Notes under the pieces: generated by a model
The model's database searches: none
Seen by the model: the letters and a program-made list of their open reading frames with translations, nothing else
What the model was told of the DNA's origin: nothing
Shown: in pieces, positions 963 to 13,002 of the stretch
Layout of the letters: each line of letters starts with the position of its first letter
How positions within the stretch are numbered: the stretch's first letter is position 1
From: Enterobacteria phage vB_EcoM_IME540
Reading direction: 5' to 3' (one strand)
Sequence record: MT150133.1
DNA: 64,000 nt
Program-made: the position numbers and the translations under genes

Positions 963-1552
963 TTACGGCATTCCTCAATAAACTCATTTAAATTCCGTTT
1001 GATTTTACCTTCGTCGTAAAGACGTTGTTGACGACGTAAACGCCATGGCATTTCAATAGCCAAGCACCAAATACTTAAAGCAGCGCCAGCTGTGAAAAGG
1101 TTCATTAATCCAGCACCAATAATAGTTCGTTCTAGCGCATCATTCCAGTTAGCATCGATTAAAAATGAACTCAACACTAACATTGGAAGTAAAGTAATAA
1201 AATATGCTACAACATATCGTCTGAACGTAAGCCATTCAGTATCGATGAGCTTAGCCTTTCCATCTTGGAGACAAATATACTTATCGTCAGTGCGGGTGAT
1301 TTTCTTTACTGGTTGCCAGCCGTTTACGATATAGCCCATTTTATATTCCTCAATTAAAAGCTGTTTCATTTCGGCAGTACAACCTGACCAATCTATTGTA
1401 CTGGCTGAAATTCCTTCATCACCGTCATCGATATTTCGCCAGGACTTTTTAATAATCATATGTTCACCACTTGGGATAATAATTCCAGCATTTTCCGACC
1501 GACGGATGAAGTTTGTATCAATACCCATACAACCGGGTTCATAAAGGGCCAT
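959..1552 (-). CDS. hypothetical membrane protein, 197 aa, with C-terminal RRQQR...NEFIEECRK tail
   Basis: TAATG overlap with upstream gene; hydrophobic segments YFITLLPMLVLSSFLI and IIGAGLMNLFTAGAALSIWCLAI. Confidence 0.6.
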   Translation of the reverse strand: MALYEPGCMGIDTNFIRRSENAGIIIPSGEHMIIKKSWRNIDDGDEGISASTIDWSGCTAEMKQLLIEEYKMGYIVNGWQPVKKITRTDDKYICLQDGKAKLIDTEWLTFRRYVVAYFITLLPMLVLSSFLIDANWNDALERTIIGAGLMNLFTAGAALSIWCLAIEMPWRLRRQQRLYDEGKIKRNLNEFIEECRK

Positions 1553-2241
1553 TACCAGCCCTCCATAGGGAATTCCAGATATACTTGAGCATTAACGCGG
1601 ATTTCATTAGTAATCTTTTTAACTCGGTCGGTATTACGAGACACACGACCAAACCAGCGCCAACCGTTACTTACTGCACGAGAACCTGTATGCCATGTCT
1701 GCCAATCAAACTGGAGCAACGTGCGGTCGGGGGCATCCCACTTGGTTAATTCATTAGACTCAATTTTTTCCAGAACTTCTTTATGCCACTGGCGATAGAT
1801 AAGTTCGCCTTCAGGAATCTGACTGAATTGTGCAGTTCCGGTTGCAAAATGAGTAGGACACACATCAGCGTTAACAAGACCAAGAATATGTTCAGAATGG
1901 TATCGAGGATTATCATAATCAGGTTGCCCTGCGGTAATAAAGTGTTGACCCACCGGAATATCCGGGCGTGGTACATCATCATGGTGGAAGCCTGGAATTG
2001 CAGGGTACCAGCCAGGCATTAACATGTGTACACGGGAATCAAATACAATATCAGGGCCACATTGCCAATCTTCAGGCAGGTTTTCAATAAAGCTACGAGT
2101 AATAGGACCGCCATGTTTATGAGCAAAATAAGCATCGCAATTAAAGAACATAGGCTCATTTTTAATCATATCATTACTGATATCTTGAGCAAAACCACCT
2201 ACTGCACGAGCTTTAGAATTAAAAATTTTTGGACCGTTCAT
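1552..2241 (-). CDS. hypothetical protein, 229 aa
   Basis: Long ORF in operon context; His/Asp-rich segment PGFHHDDVPRPD...HSEH could be a metal site; no family recognised. Confidence 0.6.
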   Translation of the reverse strand: MNGPKIFNSKARAVGGFAQDISNDMIKNEPMFFNCDAYFAHKHGGPITRSFIENLPEDWQCGPDIVFDSRVHMLMPGWYPAIPGFHHDDVPRPDIPVGQHFITAGQPDYDNPRYHSEHILGLVNADVCPTHFATGTAQFSQIPEGELIYRQWHKEVLEKIESNELTKWDAPDRTLLQFDWQTWHTGSRAVSNGWRWFGRVSRNTDRVKKITNEIRVNAQVYLEFPMEGW

Positions 2242-2255
2242 AATATTTTCCTCAC

Positions 2256-2468
2256 TTACTTTTTGTTGAAAAAGTACATTTTACCTTTAGGGGATAAGGA
2301 TACACGAAGTGCGTTACCAATACCAACTGAACATTTAACCAGGTCAGCAGATTTCAATTCACCAAATGCTTGACGAAGGTCACCGTCACGAGTGTTAACC
2401 ATCAGGCATTTAGCACCAGCTGCACGAACTTCGTTTAACATGTTGATTGCTTGGTTAGAAAGTTTCAT
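2256..2468 (-). CDS. hypothetical protein, 70 aa
   Basis: Start moved to internal ATG 2468-2466 with RBS GGAG (leader ...GGAGAATAAA-ATG) directly downstream of an early promoter cassette. Confidence 0.5.
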   Translation of the reverse strand: MKLSNQAINMLNEVRAAGAKCLMVNTRDGDLRQAFGELKSADLVKCSVGIGNALRVSLSPKGKMYFFNKK

Positions 2469-2505
2469 TTTATTCTCCATTTCACTCTGTTGTTTTGATA
2501 GGTCT

Positions 2506-2534
2506 ATAGTATCACACCTATAGACCTTGTACAC
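2506..2534 (-). promoter_or_regulatory. sigma70-type early promoter cassette (-35 GTGTAC, 17-bp spacer, -10 TACTAT) with 10-bp inverted repeat AGGTCTATAG/CTATAGACCT
   Basis: Minus strand ...GTGTACAAGGTCTATAGGTGTGATACTATAGACCTATCAAAACAACAGAGTGAAATGGAGAATAAA-ATG. Confidence 0.55.
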
Positions 2535-2546
2535 TGTTTTGTGCAA

Positions 2547-3506
2547 TTATTTTTCGAAAGGACGAATTAAATGTTGGTTACGCTTAAACCGTTCAATGTA
2601 GTCGTTTTCACCTAAAGTCTTGTACATATTAACCACAGCTTGGTAGTTTTCCCATGCATAAGTGCGGAACCAACCTGAAGTGATTGAGGTGCACACTTTC
2701 TCAAGGGCCATATAGAAACTTAATGATGGTGAAATATTGAAGTCATTAGGAACCTGTGAACGTTCTAGTGCCAGGACACAAGTTTCTTCATACACACCAG
2801 CCAGTTTAATAGCTTCAGGCAAAGCCTCGAACTTCTCACGAGAGGTCATGACTTCAGAACCTTCCTTCATATAAAAGGTATATGCAGGGCGCCCTGCCAA
2901 TGCCACTGCTTCATGGATAGAGTCGTGGTCCAGAGTATAAATGGGATCATTAAAGAACGATGATTTGTTTACATCCAATTTAGGGTGGGAATAGCTCAAC
3001 GTTTCTTTTTGACGTTGCAACATAATTTCCTGGAGTTCTTCGTTAAGGGTGATACCTTTATTACGAAGGTATTTGATGTGGGACATGGTTTTCAAGAAGA
3101 ACGGATTATTCTTCAAGAAACGATGGGAGGTTTTGATAGCCAGACAGATATCAGGGGTTGCCCAATAGAAACCTGTAAGACGGTCCTTTTTAATATGATT
3201 TTCGGCATATTTCAGGAGACGATAACTTGAGGTGAAATCTTCGTCTTGAAGCTCACCGGTAATTTCTCGTACGTTAGTCAGGGCACGAACGATATAAGCT
3301 TCAAAATAGGTTTCTTTACCATTGTACATGCATTTAAAAGCCTGGACATCAGGGTTATCCACAGGAACATGGGCACCAAACATCCGAGCTTTAAAGTGAT
3401 TCCATGAGCCTTGGTCGGCAATGAAATCCCAATCAGAATTTTCGATATGCTTACTTTCAATCAGACCAGCGTGGTGCAGTGCACGAGAACCAATAACTAA
3501 CATCAT
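2547..3506 (-). CDS. hypothetical protein, 319 aa; possible Pol-beta-type nucleotidyltransferase-like motif
   Basis: Start at ATG 3506-3504 with RBS GAGGAAA; N-terminal IGSRALHHAGLIESKHIENSDWDFIAD loosely resembles the hG[GS]...DxD signature. Confidence 0.6.
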   Translation of the reverse strand: MMLVIGSRALHHAGLIESKHIENSDWDFIADQGSWNHFKARMFGAHVPVDNPDVQAFKCMYNGKETYFEAYIVRALTNVREITGELQDEDFTSSYRLLKYAENHIKKDRLTGFYWATPDICLAIKTSHRFLKNNPFFLKTMSHIKYLRNKGITLNEELQEIMLQRQKETLSYSHPKLDVNKSSFFNDPIYTLDHDSIHEAVALAGRPAYTFYMKEGSEVMTSREKFEALPEAIKLAGVYEETCVLALERSQVPNDFNISPSLSFYMALEKVCTSITSGWFRTYAWENYQAVVNMYKTLGENDYIERFKRNQHLIRPFEK

Positions 3507-3525
3507 AATATTTTCCTCAGTAAAC

Positions 3526-3765
3526 TTAAATTTCAGCGACGTAATCGTTATGCAATTCCCACATATCATCAGAATTATTCTTAATGATAGGAATTATCTC
3601 ATTAGAGATTTCTTCAGCATAAGGGTCATTGATACAGTGGGCATCTTCAAAACGAACACCGTAATCAGACTTCTTATAAGAGAAGCCATAAATCTTTTTA
3701 AACTTGGCGCGAGTAATGCGTACCGGTTCATTAGACTTATCGGACATCGGAGCGTAATACCACAT
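3526..3765 (-). CDS. hypothetical protein, 79 aa
   Basis: ATG 3765 preceded by RBS GAGGAG in conserved leader ACACAAACATGAGGAGAACAT. Confidence 0.55.
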   Translation of the reverse strand: MWYYAPMSDKSNEPVRITRAKFKKIYGFSYKKSDYGVRFEDAHCINDPYAEEISNEIIPIIKNNSDDMWELHNDYVAEI

Positions 3766-3792
3766 ATGTTCTCCTCATGTTTGTGTAGGGTA

Positions 3793-3821
3793 ATAGTAAC
3801 ATGATTTTCTAGAGTTGTACA
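3793..3821 (-). promoter_or_regulatory. early promoter (-35 TGTACA, -10 TACTAT) with conserved leader
   Basis: Minus strand TGTACAACTCTAGAAAATCATGTTACTATTACCCTACACAAACATGAGGAGAACAT-ATG; leader near-identical to the one at 62501-62557. Confidence 0.45.
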
Positions 3822-4138
3822 TCACTTCTGCAATATTCTAAAAATAATTTATCATTGTCTACTGTATCCCAACGACGCCAAGACGGGTTCCAGACCAAAG
3901 CGTTGTCACCACAATCATTGAGCTTAAAATGGTCGTAGTACATAGCTATGTGTCTAGTCTCGTCACCAGAGAACCCCAGTATAGGCTCACCGTGGGTGTG
4001 ATACATATGATGGTGCATTGAGAGGTCGCATTTGTAAAACATCTCACGTTTACCACGAACGAACAAGAAGGCCTGTCCATTCATATAGAATTCTTTATTT
4101 GTTTTCAAAAGATATTTGAATACTGAATCTTTATGCAT
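3809..4138 (-). CDS. hypothetical protein, 109 aa, His-rich (MHHHMYHTHGE)
   Basis: Start at internal ATG 4138-4136 with strong RBS AGGAGGA. Confidence 0.5.
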   Translation of the reverse strand: MHKDSVFKYLLKTNKEFYMNGQAFLFVRGKREMFYKCDLSMHHHMYHTHGEPILGFSGDETRHIAMYYDHFKLNDCGDNALVWNPSWRRWDTVDNDKLFLEYCRSDVQL

Positions 4139-4168
4139 AAGTCCTCCTACCACATCCATGTGGTTAAA

Positions 4169-4396
4169 TTATTTTCCTAACGAAATACGAGTAGGTTTTT
4201 TACCGAAATAGTCTTCATAAGAACCATCTAAACGACCTGCTTTAGACCGACAATATGAATCGTACTTTTTGTAATAAGTCATCTCAGTATTATAACGCGG
4301 GTGTCTATCAGCCATAATAATACTTAACGGCCAACCTTTGGCATAATCGCGAAGACCATTTATTTTACGAATGTATCTTTTCTTTAATTTTAGCAT
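4169..4396 (-). CDS. possible small basic protein, 75 aa
   Basis: ORF only; no convincing RBS at either candidate ATG. Confidence 0.3.
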   Translation of the reverse strand: MLKLKKRYIRKINGLRDYAKGWPLSIIMADRHPRYNTEMTYYKKYDSYCRSKAGRLDGSYEDYFGKKPTRISLGK

Positions 4397-4614
4397 GAGC
4401 TCGGATACCAGATTTTACCATCGGCCTGAGCAACGAAGGTGCGTCCAGCTTCTTCACCATAACAAGAGCTATTCAGCCAATCTTCGAGACGAACTTCACC
4501 GTCATAATCGTCGAGCTCAACACCAAAACTTTGAGCAGAAGCCATATCTTTTACTTTCTTATACAGTGCAGCCAGTTCAAGTGCGGCTTTTTCTAATTCA
4601 TTAATATCAGTCAT
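4390..4614 (-). CDS. small acidic protein, 74 aa, member 1 of a four-gene paralog array (C-terminus WYPSSC)
   Basis: Start at internal ATG 4614-4612 with RBS AAGGTGA; shares N-terminal MTDINELEK and C-terminal W-x-SS-x-C pattern with neighbours. Confidence 0.55.
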   Translation of the reverse strand: MTDINELEKAALELAALYKKVKDMASAQSFGVELDDYDGEVRLEDWLNSSCYGEEAGRTFVAQADGKIWYPSSC

Positions 4615-4624
4615 TTTTATCACC

Positions 4625-4837
4625 TTAGCAAGACATAGAGGATGTAAACCAGAAACCTTCACCATCTGGGATACCGTAATCATCACGGGCCCATTCATAA
4701 TCATCATATTCCGGATTCTTTGGAGAAATGTATTGTCCACGACCAGAAACATGGAACTCTTCACCCGTTTCGTCAGCCACGGCCTGGCCTTTACGTACTA
4801 ATTCGCGGATTTGTTTTTCAATTTCATCAATAGTCAT
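4625..4837 (-). CDS. small acidic protein, 70 aa, paralog 2 (C-terminus WFTSSMSC)
   Basis: RBS AAGGAAA upstream of ATG 4837; N-terminal MTIDEIEK. Confidence 0.55.
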   Translation of the reverse strand: MTIDEIEKQIRELVRKGQAVADETGEEFHVSGRGQYISPKNPEYDDYEWARDDYGIPDGEGFWFTSSMSC

Positions 4838-4846
4838 TTTATTTCC

Positions 4847-5128
4847 TTAACATTCAGAAGAAGAGGACACCCAACCGCCATTTTCTAGGCTGGTGGTGTA
4901 ATCATGCTGGTTTACAATAGCATACTGGGCTTCACCGTATTCTTCCCAGTGGGCAAGGTCGGCTTTCAAGGCGCCAGGAGAATAATAGTCACCGCCCATA
5001 CCGCGAGCAGGGTATATATTAAAATGAGTCTCATATTTGTTAGCAATTTCCTCGGCACGACGAATAGCTTTATGGATATCATTTACTGCGTCAGCCAGCT
5101 CTTTATTTTTACGGTAATCATTCATCAT
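4847..5128 (-). CDS. small acidic protein, 93 aa, paralog 3 (C-terminus WVSSSSEC)
   Basis: RBS AAGGAAA upstream of ATG 5128. Confidence 0.55.
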   Translation of the reverse strand: MMNDYRKNKELADAVNDIHKAIRRAEEIANKYETHFNIYPARGMGGDYYSPGALKADLAHWEEYGEAQYAIVNQHDYTTSLENGGWVSSSSEC

Positions 5129-5137
5129 AGCGTTTCC

Positions 5138-5428
5138 TTAGCACATTGCCGAAGAGGAGACCCAAGCACCAACTGTAACGACACCGTTTTCAACTTCACC
5201 GCCATTGTTTTCAATTTCATCTTTAAACCATTGGGAGCATTCATAACCGACAGGATAATATGTACGGCCTGAACCATAACCACCGGTACTGAATTCAATA
5301 CCATATTCATCTGCGATTTCTTCACATTTGGATTCGATGGTGCCTACTTTACCCAGCAGGTCATAGATAGCCTTTTCTGCGGACAGCGCGCTGTTGTATT
5401 CAGGGATTTCAATTTCAATTTTATTCAT
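5138..5428 (-). CDS. small acidic protein, 96 aa, paralog 4 (C-terminus WVSSSAMC)
   Basis: RBS AAGGAA upstream; start overlaps stop of upstream gene. Confidence 0.55.
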   Translation of the reverse strand: MNKIEIEIPEYNSALSAEKAIYDLLGKVGTIESKCEEIADEYGIEFSTGGYGSGRTYYPVGYECSQWFKDEIENNGGEVENGVVTVGAWVSSSAMC

Positions 5429-5778
5429 GATTTACATTCCTTAATAAAGGTTTCAAGGTCATTACGTTTAGTTTGTTTTACATACTCATTATAATTAACC
5501 ATAGCTAAAGCATATCTCTTTTTACGCGGCTTGTTTATTTTATTAGTTTGGGCAATATCAAAGACCCATGGGATAAAAAATCCTATTAAAGCCGGAACCC
5601 AAATCCATGCAAGGCTCATATCTTCAAACGGATGGCGAGGCATACCATTAATAATCCCACCGACAAGAAATCCAATTATCCCTGCAGTCATACTAGTAGC
5701 AATGCCGAGGAATAAGGAAATAGCTATATCATAATCTGCTAATGCGTAACCAGGGTCGGTTTTACTAGGCTTATGCAT
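5425..5778 (-). CDS. hypothetical membrane protein, 117 aa, with C-terminal ...NDLETFIKECKS tail
   Basis: Start at internal ATG 5778-5776; two hydrophobic helices (IAISLFLGIATSMTAGIIGFLVGGII; AWIWVPALIGFFIPWVF). Confidence 0.55.
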   Translation of the reverse strand: MHKPSKTDPGYALADYDIAISLFLGIATSMTAGIIGFLVGGIINGMPRHPFEDMSLAWIWVPALIGFFIPWVFDIAQTNKINKPRKKRYALAMVNYNEYVKQTKRNDLETFIKECKS

Positions 5779-6307
5779 TTTGAACCTCTTTAGCGTATTC
5801 GCGACATTCAGTAATAAAACGATTAAGTTTACGTTGTTGTTTACGAATCTCTGATGTATACTCATTGGCTAAAATAATAAGCTCATCTTTATCGTAATTT
5901 TTAATATCCGAATAACTCGGGCGGCGGTCGACCATACCAAAGTGGTCACCATTTTCTAACATCAAATAGCATACTAAATGGTAATCATCGTCGGCATCAA
6001 CAAGCTGTTTATAATCGCTTGGTTCATTTAAAGAGTATACTGAATAGCGTAGCCCAGCGAATTCCACTCGTTGAATAGCCAGATTTACGTCAATAATTTC
6101 TAAAGCATCTGCAAAAGAAAGGTCCTCAGCTAAAGCAAAGATAAAGGGTAATTTGGTAGTATGCCCACGGCTAGATGTTCTGCTTAAGAAATCGTTTGAA
6201 TAACCTAGGTCTTGGCGAATTCTATAAAGAACTGCATTAGTTTCATGTGAAAGACCACTATGTTTAAACCAATCAATATTTGATATCAGGTCGTCGTATA
6301 AACTCAT
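5771..6307 (-). CDS. hypothetical protein, 178 aa, with C-terminal IRKQQRKLNRFITECREY module
   Basis: ORF with RBS GGAGGAGAGGAG upstream of ATG 6307. Confidence 0.6.
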   Translation of the reverse strand: MSLYDDLISNIDWFKHSGLSHETNAVLYRIRQDLGYSNDFLSRTSSRGHTTKLPFIFALAEDLSFADALEIIDVNLAIQRVEFAGLRYSVYSLNEPSDYKQLVDADDDYHLVCYLMLENGDHFGMVDRRPSYSDIKNYDKDELIILANEYTSEIRKQQRKLNRFITECREYAKEVQNA

Positions 6308-6330
6308 AATATTCTCCTCTCCTCCAAATA

Positions 6331-6348
6331 GGGAGACCGAAGTCTCCC
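6331..6348. terminator. stem-loop GGGAGAC-CGAA-GTCTCCC
   Basis: Perfect 7-bp stem with tetraloop between two minus-strand genes; same stem sequence recurs at 46366-46383. Confidence 0.45.
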
Positions 6349-6355
6349 GGTAACA

Positions 6356-6949
6356 TTACTTAAGTGAATTAATGTAGTCTTCGATATCAGCAGAAGTCGT
6401 ATCCATTCCAACTTGCGGGCCTTTAAACGTTTCTACGCGCATCAGGGTGTCTTCGATATCAATCTTGGTCAGTGCAGCAATTTCAACAACATCGTCGGCA
6501 GTAGCAATACCAAGGGCAGCCATATTACGAGTTTCACGGATGTACTCGAGCTTAACAGCCAGTTCCTGACGAGAGTCATCAAGTTCCTTAACCTTCAGTT
6601 TAATTTCATTACGCATTTCGATATAATCATCGGCTTTCTTACGAAGCTGAGTAGCTGTACGACGATAAAGGAGACCGAGTTTAGCATGTACCTGGACATC
6701 AGAGCCTTCGGCAATCAGTTTACGAATTTCACGTTCTTTAGAAGCAGCGAGCTGGTCTTTTTCATTAGCCAAAGCACGAATACGTTTTTCTTCATTCACA
6801 GACTTAACATGAGCAGTCTGGAGTTCAGTGATTTTATCAATCAGAGTAGAAGCAGCTTTGGTGTATTGGTCTTCGATTGACAGGTTCTGAGCCATTGCGG
6901 TGCCCAGTTTAGAACGAATGAATTCAACGATTTTCTTTAAAGTGTTCAT
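6356..6949 (-). CDS. PspA/IM30 (phage-shock protein A / Vipp1)-like coiled-coil protein, 197 aa
   Basis: Start at ATG 6949-6947 with RBS GAAGGAAA; heptad-rich sequence with segments resembling PspA ([13 protein letters not shown] vs RALAEKKQL; [18 protein letters not shown] vs ELENKLSETRARQQAL), from memory. Confidence 0.5.
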
Positions 6950-7025
6950 AGTATTTCCTTCAGTTGGTTGATATTTTGTAATCCATGAGGACATTATACC
7001 CTGTCCTCTGAGGTTTGTAAACATT

Positions 7026-7482: not shown

Positions 7483-7746
7483 TTATTTCATATTATTGAA
7501 ATAATTTTCTGCATCAAAATCATTACCATGGTAAACTTTGGTAGACGATTTGGCGTAACCTTCAGCTGAGAACATATTAATCACAACTTTAATTGTATAC
7601 CACTGTCCATCTTCATTACCCATTACTGCATAGGTTTCATACACCGGGTGTTCAGGACCGATAACCTTAATATCGTTAACTGTGGCACCAAATTCTTCCG
7701 GAACGCATTTCATAAAGAAATTAAACACTTCACCATAATTATCCAT
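7483..7746 (-). CDS. hypothetical protein, 87 aa
   Basis: Track ORF begins at a GTG; real start taken as ATG 7746-7744 with RBS AAGGAG. Confidence 0.5.
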   Translation of the reverse strand: MDNYGEVFNFFMKCVPEEFGATVNDIKVIGPEHPVYETYAVMGNEDGQWYTIKVVINMFSAEGYAKSSTKVYHGNDFDAENYFNNMK

Positions 7747-7781
7747 TTTACTCTCCTTCACTCTGTTGTTTTGATAGGTCT

Positions 7782-8715: not shown

Positions 8716-8790
8716 TGGTATCCCGCCCTGGGATCGAACCAGGACCGCAAACTTAGAAGGATCGTATGCTATCCATTACACCAGCGGGAC
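8716..8790 (-). tRNA. tRNA-Arg (anticodon UCU), CCA encoded
   Basis: Minus strand GTCCCGC...TTCTAAG...CCTGGTTCGATCCCAGGGCGGGATACCA; 7-bp acceptor stem, T-arm CCTGG-TTCGATC-CCAGG, anticodon loop CTTCTAA. Confidence 0.85.
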
Positions 8791-8795
8791 GTAAT

Positions 8796-9461
8796 TCAAA
8801 ATTTTATTTTACGGCCTTTATTCCAACCTTCAGGAATAATATCCGTTTTGTTAATACGTTTAGAAACTTTTTCTTCTAAAGAATGAATCCACATTTTTCC
8901 ATATCCGGAATTATTTTCACCTTGTTGGTGTTTATTTCTGGCGTGAGATTCTTTCATTTTATTTTTGGTTTCATCTGAATGGGTCTTACCCAAGAAAGAT
9001 TTAGTATTTGAAAATTTCTCTCTATACTTAGGATTATCCCAAAGTTGTTTAAACCTTTCCGAACCCATTTTACGATATTTTTCTTTAAGGTCTGGGTCGT
9101 TCTCAAATCTGGTTTTAAAAGCGGCAACTCCTTTTAAGGAAGCTTCTTTCTTTTTATCTAAATATTCTTCAGTGTTTAAATGGTCCCAACCACCTTCACC
9201 ACCTAATTTCAAATTATAAACATCAGGGCGCTTTAAAAACTCTTCAGTCACAATATTCTTTTCTGACTCAAACATAGAGGTTTTATCGTCAAAGAACTCT
9301 AATATTTCTTTAGAGAAATTTTCTATACCGTATTTGACCTGGGCCCTTTTTAAGAGTTTACCAGAACCAAAATATGCATCATTCAAATTTTCGGTTGAAT
9401 GGGCGCCTATATAGATTTTATTATTAATTTTGTTTGTTATTTTATAAGTGTAATGGAACAT
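8796..9461 (-). CDS. segB: GIY-YIG homing endonuclease, segB-like, inside the tRNA cluster
   Basis: 221 aa; N-terminal YKITNKINNKIYIGAHST...GSGK motif; basic NUMOD-like C-terminus; RBS AGGAGA; same position as T4 segB. Confidence 0.8.
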   Translation of the reverse strand: MFHYTYKITNKINNKIYIGAHSTENLNDAYFGSGKLLKRAQVKYGIENFSKEILEFFDDKTSMFESEKNIVTEEFLKRPDVYNLKLGGEGGWDHLNTEEYLDKKKEASLKGVAAFKTRFENDPDLKEKYRKMGSERFKQLWDNPKYREKFSNTKSFLGKTHSDETKNKMKESHARNKHQQGENNSGYGKMWIHSLEEKVSKRINKTDIIPEGWNKGRKIKF

Positions 9462-9502: not shown

Positions 9503-9573
9503 TGGCCCTGGGTGGAATCGAACCACCATCCAGCGATTATGAGTCGCTCGCTTGACCGTCCAGCTACAGGGCC
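9503..9573 (-). tRNA. tRNA with CAU anticodon (Met, or Ile if lysidine-modified), CCA not encoded
   Basis: Minus strand GGCCCTG...AGCGA-CTCATAA-TCGCT...GGTGG-TTCGATT-CCACC-CAGGGCC-A. Confidence 0.8.
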
Positions 9574-11547: not shown

Positions 11548-12240
<693 letters not shown>

Positions 12241-12248
<8 letters not shown>

Positions 12249-13002
12249 TTTTATTTCCTAATAATTTATCAATAGTGGTGTATAGTTCAGAAAGAGTGCC
12301 GTTATTTTCAACAACAACGTCACCAGGTAAAATTGGTAGACCCGCTTCAGTGATGTGCGAGTCTTGTACTTGACCGGTTTCAGCGCGAACTACATGAATA
12401 ATCGTAGCACCCATCGCTCTGAGCGAATCAATTTCGTGTGTTTGACGAACATCAGGTACGACATAGTATTTCGCATCAGAGTATATTTTATCAAAATAGT
12501 CTAAAGCGAACAACTTAACCCAATACATCTTATCAAATTGGTTAACAATAATATCAGTCCCAAGGGTCTGCATGAGACGACGTACTGACCAATTGTTATT
12601 TTTATTTATTACTTCAAACAGTTGGTCTTTTGTTTCTTCAGACAGATACTGGACTGCGGTAAGACCATAATGATATGCGGTACGAACATCCATTCCTGGA
12701 ATAGGAAGGATATTATTCAGTTTGACAATAGCATTTTCAAAGATATCAATCACATCATATGGTTTTAAAGGAATGATTTCTTCACGGTCGTAACCGATAC
12801 CTTCAAAACAGTTAAAATCTAGTTTAGGCATGTAACTACGGTCGAATACAGGGTCATCAGAGATGTATTCATAGGCTTCAGCCAGATACTTTTTAATAGG
12901 ACCTGCGAGCTGAAATTTTACCGAATCCATATTTTCGATTACATAGTTAGCAACGGTATCCTTACCGCTACGTTTGATTCCTACAATTGATATTAGTTTC
13001 AT
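12241..13002 (-). CDS. 1: deoxynucleoside monophosphate kinase gp1
   Basis: 253 aa with P-loop GIKRSGKDT and RRLMQTLGTDIIVNQFDKMYWVKLFALDY, matches T4 gp1. Confidence 0.9.

Follow-up and report, generated by a model that had tools for sequence, protein, structure and literature searches.

What does an anonymous gene do that lies among small reading frames of no known function in a T4-like phage, and with which proteins does it act? The gene considered here encodes a protein of 319 amino acids (aa) in Enterobacteria phage vB_EcoM_IME540 (sequence record MT150133.1); the window analysed is a stretch of 64,000 nucleotides (nt) from this record. A first-pass annotation, made from the letters alone, had offered a guess that it called weak, namely a nucleotidyltransferase (NTase) of the Pol-beta type. 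The guess is supported: at the level of fold and motif the protein is a member of the Pol-beta NTase superfamily, and transfer of a nucleoside monophosphate (NMP) is its predicted activity. Its gene is coupled, in both directions and across phage lineages, to genes for small proteins that end in an invariant, exposed, cysteine-containing tail, which suggests an undescribed enzyme-partner module. The small proteins may be the substrates of the enzyme, a reading that is preferred here tentatively.

The nucleotidyltransferase core

The open reading frame (ORF) at 2547-3506 is real and lies on the minus strand, which the first-pass annotation had not given; the plus-strand frame is riddled with stops there. 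The N-terminus reads MMLVIGSRALHHAGLIESKHIENSDWDFIAD, as had been quoted, and it contains the Gly-Ser and D-x-D that had been noticed: G6-S7, and D25-W-D27 with 17 residues between S7 and D25. The bare motif is not significant alone: of 427 unrelated ORFs from related loci, each 200 aa or longer, 75 contain G[GS]-x9-20-D-x-[DE]. It is more than chance because it is conserved across homologues. Counted over the non-gap residues of 358 homologous domains, position 6 is G in 347 of 347 and position 27 is D in 351 of 351; S7 is S in 343 and G in 3, D25 is D in 347 and E in 4, and E69 is E in 331 and D in 21 of 352. G6, S7, A9, D25, D27 and E69 are invariant in an alignment of 48 sequences (44-84% identity). 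Conservation of GS, DxD and E/D argues that the NTase site is catalytic.

An AlphaFold2 model of the enzyme, built from the 48-sequence alignment, is confident (predicted local distance difference test (pLDDT) 92; predicted template modelling score (pTM) 0.85). The core consists of a strand (residues 2-5), a helix (6-12), a second strand (26-31), a helix (32-41) and strands 45-47, 54-61 and 64-73. G6-S7 sit at the junction of the first strand and helix, where V-I-G6-S7 follows strand 2-5 and opens helix 6-12; D25-W-D27-F-I opens strand 26-31, and E69 is on the later strand 64-73. In the model the G-S, D-x-D and E set is therefore placed in the canonical Pol-beta NTase layout, and the core resembles solved NTases in three dimensions. 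Neither a confident non-NTase fold nor a lack of catalytic-site arrangement, the two outcomes named beforehand as speaking against the guess, appeared.

The long spacing of the motif had been raised as a reason for doubt. The canonical distance from G[GS] to the first carboxylate is 9-13 residues, which the query does exceed. Long spacing is a trait of the family, in which it ranges from 10 to 26 with a median of 16, about 30 of about 345 members having 10-13. The extra length falls within the helix and loop that connect strand 1 to strand 2, so the deviation is one of loop length and not of topology.

Judged by sequence, the enzyme is outside every named NTase family. None of the 48 members matches the NTase models of Pfam or the DUF1814/AbiEii profile (PF08843) at E values up to 5, and NCBIfam and PADLOC gave no match for the enzyme. 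A search of PDB sequences with the single sequence and with the 48-sequence profile returned PsaB as sole match, by chance. Two families proposed for checking by the first-pass annotation did not fit: neither a cGAS/DncV-like bilobed fold nor the family profile of the CD-NTases was found, and no HEPN-domain RNase partner of the sort that MNT proteins have is encoded alongside. What Pfam does find is DUF7277 (residues 2-101, 93 bits) and then DUF7275 (residues 120-305, 258 bits), with cut-offs of 27; both are present in 48 of 48 aligned members. The enzyme is assigned to phrog_2141. No function is attached to this PHROG or to either Pfam entry.

The names given to homologues in databases are varied. 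Two GenBank records call Acinetobacter-phage homologues 'putative nucleotidyltransferase', so the bare NTase idea is not new, and one record has 'putative antibiotic resistance protein'. The names 'prohead assembly scaffold protein', 'MutT', 'seryl-tRNA synthetase' and 'cysteinyl-tRNA synthetase' were treated as annotation noise because no domain match supports them. The first of these, used for a homologue in two records, would suit an inert scaffold or structural protein with an NTase fold. This is scarcely credible, as universal catalytic carboxylates and GS are unexpected in a pseudoenzyme, the gene is found among non-structural accessory genes, and the name lacks a domain match.

Small cysteine-tailed partner proteins

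Neighbouring genes were surveyed by calling ORFs in 91 loci and clustering the neighbours; the loci were dereplicated to 26 groups (enzyme identity of at least 60%) and came from pattern-based retrieval, which is biased toward conserved C-domain sequences. One neighbour cluster stands out. BLAST clustering places it in 11 of the 26 groups, and the next best (5 groups) consists of syntenic core genes. With a hidden Markov model (HMM) of the partner family, matches are found in 73 of 91 loci and 16 of 26 groups. The proteins share their extreme C-terminus: 235 of 22,750 six-frame ORFs end in W-x0-3-(SS/SA/AS)-x0-3-C-stop, and 225 of these, from 22 of the 26 groups, are on the strand of the enzyme gene and end no more than 3 kb upstream of it. 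In another group a tail-motif gene lies 1.7 kb downstream of the enzyme gene. The gap between partner and enzyme genes is 4-80 nt in many lineages, and there are 1-5 partner copies per locus.

The coupling also holds in reverse. A search with the small-protein profile found 132 database proteins, 0 of which have a Pfam domain. At 7 of 7 places on long contigs, including Myxococcus phage Mx1 and jumbo-phage contigs, a gene encoding DUF7277 and DUF7275 lies just downstream on the same strand; a 378-kb contig is among the seven. All partner members tested belong to phrog_899, which carries no function, and no Pfam model covers them; neither Pfam nor PHROG connects the two families.

Partners are proteins of 60-146 aa that have a long helix at the N-terminus, a YG-x-GG-x-YY motif, a stretch that is acidic and variable, and an extreme C-terminus that is invariant; the median isoelectric point (pI) is 4.5. 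The tail logo is W(-7) x [S/P/A](-5) S(-4) S(-3) x x C(0), and the cysteine is terminal in 111 of 111 unique tails. The tryptophan, both serines and the terminal cysteine are invariant, whereas the bodies are variable (23-26% column identity). In the window there are four partner genes in tandem, each of which starts a few bases past the previous stop and has its own ribosome-binding site (RBS), GGAAA or GGTGA. The AlphaFold2 model of partner 1 is a folded alpha/beta mini-protein (pLDDT 89) with less confidence in the last 5 residues. Partner 4, annotated as the 74-aa version in Escherichia phage LHE83, bears the motif twice: an internal DWLNSSC (followed by YGEE...) and the terminal KIWYPSSC. 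This arrangement recurs in related phages and suggests either that the motif was duplicated or that there is no strict need for a free C-terminal carboxylate.

Neighbour clustering over the 26 groups found no third gene conserved with the pair, and no kinase, protease or exporter conserved nearby. Other neighbours are sporadic. A metagenomic phage contig has T4-type RNA ligase 1 and PNKP 3-5 kb upstream of the pair (L098:1-2640, 5001-6731), and Myxococcus phage Mx1 has a macro-domain protein and a HopBF1-like kinase 3-4 kb upstream of it (L095:1065-2206); neither combination is conserved.

The coupling bears on whether the enzyme could be a small-molecule NTase, like ANT(2'') or LnuA, that acts on a metabolite or an immune signalling molecule and whose link to the small proteins is merely genomic. 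The homologue named for antibiotic resistance would fit such an activity, as would the place of the gene in a hyperplastic accessory region with NudE and, about 8 kb off, Acb1. However, a two-way association with tail-motif proteins across lineages would be left unexplained, and Pfam, NCBIfam and PADLOC gave no match to families of this kind; such an activity is very unlikely.

The C-terminal domain

The second part of the enzyme spans residues 106-319 and is larger than the core (residues 1-105). Its all-helical domain is the most conserved part of the protein. Residues K125, H128, K139, H194-D195, H198, E240-E241, E248-R249, K270, G278 and R281 are near-universal. No structural relative of the domain was found. 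H128, H194-D195 and H198 brought an HD-domain phosphohydrolase to mind; neither fold nor profile agreed with this.

Homologues in actinophages keep GS...DxD and the whole C-domain, and their N-domain is shortened to about 55 residues. Examples are Streptomyces phage Annadreamy gp196 (L005:3878-4633) and Gordonia phage Abscondus gp15 (L007:2809-3600). These are not DUF7275 proteins split from a separate N-domain gene, as the shortened N-domain retains GS and DxD and the 88-aa gene upstream is unrelated. The Gordonia homologue gene and a tRNA cluster are 1.25 kb apart, and Annadreamy has an RNA ligase two genes upstream. A further arrangement is seen in database protein P0056 (308 aa, from a 3-kb Logan contig), in which DUF1190 (residues 36-93) replaces the NTase-like N-domain and is followed by DUF7275 (107-293), 68% identical to the query C-domain; either a real domain swap or a chimera produced by assembly could explain this. 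It should also be noted that an invariant enzyme segment, C-T-S-I-T-S-G-W (residues 272-279), resembles the partner tail W-x-S-S-x-x-C in reverse, which is probably a coincidence.

The conservation of this domain raises the question of whether it carries out the main chemistry itself, such as a metal-dependent crosslink, oxidation or elimination on the Cys, Trp or Ser of the tail, with the NTase-like lobe only binding nucleotide or activating the serine first. The mix of near-universal H128, H194-D195, H198, E240-E241 and E248 is typical of metal sites; the actinophage versions retain the C-domain while the N-domain shrinks; P0056 joins DUF7275 to a different N-terminal domain; and the invariant tryptophan and terminal cysteine of the partner need an explanation beyond serine modification. 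Against this stands the universal retention of GS, DxD and E/D, by which the NTase site is argued to be catalytic. A C-domain with the leading role is unlikely.

Proposed role of the module

The preferred reading, which falls somewhat short of probable, is that the small proteins are substrates of the enzyme, which would move NMP from a nucleoside triphosphate (NTP) to the hydroxyl of a tail serine, the C-domain recognising the W...C-COOH tail. The core would bind NTP-Mg2+ via D25, D27 and E69, aided by K125, S127, H128 and R129 in the first helix past the core. The conserved C-domain would then dock the partner tail, and the enzyme would transfer NMP onto the serine hydroxyl. The covalently modified small protein would be the actual effector during infection. 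We infer the substrate role because the superfamily transfers NMP to hydroxyl groups, because several paralogous partners with variable bodies and an invariant tail go with one highly conserved enzyme, and because there are precedents in MntA-HepT and PsmN; the serine as acceptor, the nucleotide used and the role of the modified protein are conjectural in the same way. MntA, an MNT-type NTase, adenylylates HepT, encoded next to it, on a hydroxyl side chain (PMC7641770), and PsmN, an NTase homologue, is implicated in tailoring the Ser at a lasso peptide's C-terminus (PMC9266682).

Several observations weigh against partners as substrates. The closest solved relatives, MenT1, MenT3 and MenT4, act on tRNA and not on protein, and MenA1, the small upstream partner of MenT1, is an inhibitor and not a substrate (PMC10435456). 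Three unrelated genes stand between the partners and the enzyme gene in the window. In three of the 26 groups, which comprise the divergent versions of Streptomyces and Gordonia phages and of Bacillus phage G, there is no recognisable partner nearby; for the actinophages this holds within 3-4 kb. Simple nucleotidylylation of Ser does not account for the invariant Trp and terminal Cys, which leaves room for a second chemical step, and the C-domain, with its near-invariant cluster of His, Asp and Glu, points to additional or different chemistry. A literature search on the enzyme and partner families found no paper, and the combination of NTase core, DUF7275 and Cys-tailed mini-protein was not found in the literature searched.

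The structural matches point to another role. The enzyme could be a MenT-like NTase acting on RNA or tRNA 3' ends, in host shut-off or tRNA-end repair, and the small proteins could regulate it as pseudo-substrates whose conserved tail plugs the active site. MenT1, MenT3 and MenT4 are the best structural matches, and the active sites of MenT1 are blocked by MenA1, a short protein whose gene lies upstream (PMC10435456). The acidic partners would fit as occupants of a nucleic-acid-binding cleft, and tRNA genes, Rnl1/PNKP or RNA ligase are nearby in some loci. However, only 7 of the 26 lineages have tRNA genes within 8 kb, compared with 23 of 26 for the small partner, and the DUF1814/AbiEii model is matched by 0 of 48 members. 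Up to five paralogous 'regulators' per genome would be odd for an inhibitor; the genes are non-adjacent in T4-like phages, so tight stoichiometric coupling is not enforced; and the large conserved C-domain has no counterpart in MenT. A role on RNA is therefore rather doubtful.

If the partners are indeed substrates, the modification may go further. In a two-gene protein-maturation pathway of a novel type, which large phages from many lineages may carry, the Pol-beta-fold enzyme would nucleotidylylate the tail serine; its His/Asp/Glu-rich domain would then bring about elimination and attack by the terminal Cys, giving a thioether ring, or a crosslink of the Trp-Cys type. The modified mini-proteins would be effectors of host takeover or anti-defence. 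This extension is quite unlikely; if true, it would be a phage-borne post-translational modification system with NMP as leaving group.

When enzyme and partner are seen as a single module, two anonymous gene families yield a testable hypothesis. Should the small proteins be modified effectors, a new type of phage-encoded protein modification would join the ADP-ribosylation carried out by Alt, ModA and ModB. Should the enzyme be a regulated MenT-like RNA enzyme, phages would carry a relative of a bacterial toxin family. In both cases there would be an explanation for a block that is conserved in the hyperplastic e-to-tRNA region of T4-like genomes.

Distribution of the enzyme family

The enzyme family was found by tblastn in 733 of 50,697 phage records. 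Carriers include T4-like phages of enterobacteria, Aeromonas, Acinetobacter and Vibrio, Felix-O1-like Pseudomonas phages, rV5/phAPEC8-like phages, phages of Stenotrophomonas, Acidovorax, Pseudoalteromonas, Streptomyces and Gordonia, and Bacillus phage G; jumbo phages and Myxococcus phage Mx1 also have it. A profile search of 1.84 billion representative proteins (50%-identity clusters) gave 1,587 matches, nearly all of about 300 aa and of the same architecture. When 185,579 prokaryotic species were scanned, each represented by a single genome, five loci were found. All five are contigs of metagenome-assembled genomes (MAGs) that also bear the phage-type partner gene. The family is in practice restricted to phages.

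T4 itself has neither gene in the regions searched (1-50 kb and the syntenic 64-78 kb). T4 nrdC.3, which encodes 308 aa, was considered as a homologue; no HMM match was found at E <10 in these regions.

Gene call and genome setting

The window is from a T4-like phage of the genus Dhakavirus, with 98.8% identity to Escherichia phage LHE83 over 2000-4200 and 96-98% identity to Bp7, WG01 and others. The same 319-aa coding sequence (CDS) is annotated in LHE83 as 'hypothetical protein' (GenBank). An in-frame alternative ATG at 3569 would give 340 aa; the start at 3506 is favoured because the RBS GAGGAA is 6 nt off and the gene upstream stops at 3526.

The enzyme gene is within a tight same-strand array of small unknown ORFs, as had been described. 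The placement near Acb1 was less apt, as the Acb1/57B homologue is about 8 kb away and not adjacent. The three small genes between partners and enzyme are probably not part of the module, because enzyme and partner are directly adjacent in other lineages; nor do the three accompany the pair in other lineages in the neighbour clustering. Compared with the e-to-tRNA region of T4, the block at about 1552-5428, with the enzyme, the partners and several unknown genes, is an insertion; the syntenic T4 region between the e.2 and e.3 homologues is without the enzyme gene. The block also encodes a 229-aa phrog_1843 protein (1552-2241). There are two tRNA genes in the window and eight in T4. As to the early expression presumed in the first-pass annotation, a promoter scan gave no enrichment over shuffles. 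Coordinates of all features are given in Table 1.

Table 1. Features of the enzyme-partner locus and its surroundings in the 64,000-nt window
Feature	Position	Strand	Remarks
NTase-fold enzyme CDS, 319 aa	2547..3506	minus	DUF7277 + DUF7275; phrog_2141
RBS of enzyme gene, GAGGAA	3513..3518	minus	6 nt before ATG at 3506; sequence read directly
Minimal NTase core, residues 2-101	3204..3503	minus	DUF7277
G6-S7 codons (hG[GS] motif)	3486..3491	minus	invariant in two alignments
D25-W-D27 codons	3426..3434	minus	putative metal-binding carboxylate pair at start of strand 2
E69 codon (F-E-A, strand 64-73)	3300..3302	minus	candidate third catalytic carboxylate; strand placement from model; putative role
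All-helical C-terminal domain, residues 120-305	2592..3149	minus	DUF7275
Partner gene 1, 96 aa, ...GAWVSSSAMC-stop	5138..5428	minus	HMM E 2e-19; phrog_899 E 3e-22
Partner gene 2, 93 aa, ...GGWVSSSSEC-stop	4847..5128	minus	HMM E 3e-19; phrog_899 E 7e-20; RBS GGAAA directly after previous stop
Partner gene 3, 70 aa, ...GFWFTSSMSC-stop	4625..4837	minus	HMM E 2.5e-15; phrog_899 E 3e-14
Partner gene 4, 74 aa from ATG 4614, ...KIWYPSSC-stop	4390..4614	minus	phrog_899 E 2e-12 (longer ORF); RBS GGTGA
Three small genes between partners and enzyme	3526..4396	minus	4169-4396 (phrog_7065), 3809-4159 (phrog_9796), 3526-3765 (phrog_3723); ORFs and PHROGs
nudE homologue	284-838	minus	59% to T4
e.2 homologue	959-1552	minus	42% to T4, extended; PHROG 'membrane protein'
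e.3 homologue	5425-5865	minus	23% to T4
e.6 homologue	6356-7024	minus	74% to T4
e.8 homologue	7483-7761	minus	80% to T4
tRNA-Arg(TCT)	8716-8790	minus	
segB-like GIY-YIG homing endonuclease gene	8796-9461	minus	74% identity to T4 SegB; tRNA genes on both sides
tRNA-Met(CAT)	9503-9573	minus	
T4 57B (Acb1) homologue	11548-12003	minus	85% identity
T4 57A homologue	12003-12248	minus	
T4 gene 1 (dNMP kinase) homologue	12241-13002	minus	

Comparison with known systems

Several upstream precursor-like genes, a single enzyme and a conserved S...C terminal motif recall systems for peptides that are made by ribosomes and modified after translation (RiPPs), and this logic is all that is shared. The pair was considered as a RiPP precursor and its tailoring enzyme, and does not belong to that class: the partner is predicted to be folded and there is no conserved third gene. 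Within this field PsmN, from the pseudomycoidin lasso-peptide cluster, is the protein to which the enzyme can be likened, by description, as an NTase-family protein implicated in tailoring an extreme C-terminal serine (PMC9266682). PsmN differs in that it acts after a kinase, in a bacterial RiPP cluster with a cyclase; here the partner is a folded protein of 60-146 aa, and no kinase, protease or exporter accompanies the pair.

The small-molecule enzymes ANT(2'')-Ia (AadB) and LnuA are proteins of 160-180 aa without a conserved partner protein or a DUF7275-like domain, and they have no sequence match to the enzyme. In MntA-HepT, a type VII toxin-antitoxin system of the MNT-HEPN kind, MntA is also a minimal Pol-beta NTase, and its substrate is a protein encoded beside it. 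The enzyme sequence IGSRAL...SDWDFI resembles the MNT consensus GSxA...SD[IL]D. The partner here, unlike HepT, has no Pfam match and is no HEPN RNase, and the enzyme has a large extra domain.

MenT1, MenT3 (TglT) and MenT4 of Mycobacterium tuberculosis belong to the DUF1814 (AbiEii) family, which has motifs I and II (the Pol-beta motifs), a C-terminal motif III and a family-specific motif IV (PMC7450476). Like them, the enzyme is bilobed, with a Pol-beta core bearing G[S/T] and D-x-D and then a helical lobe. That lobe supplies a conserved Lys: K125 here, K137 in MenT1 and K189 in MenT3. Both the enzyme and MenT1 have a gene for a short protein just upstream, which in MenT1 is that of MenA1. 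The differences are that the C-lobe here, of about 200 residues, is far more conserved and without structural counterpart; that the family is restricted to phages, whereas MenT is part of a bacterial toxin-antitoxin system; that the partner has an invariant W..SS..C tail and 1-5 copies, features unrelated to MenA1; and that linkage to tRNA genes is weak. Among the systems compared, the enzyme works most like the minimal and MenT-type NTases.

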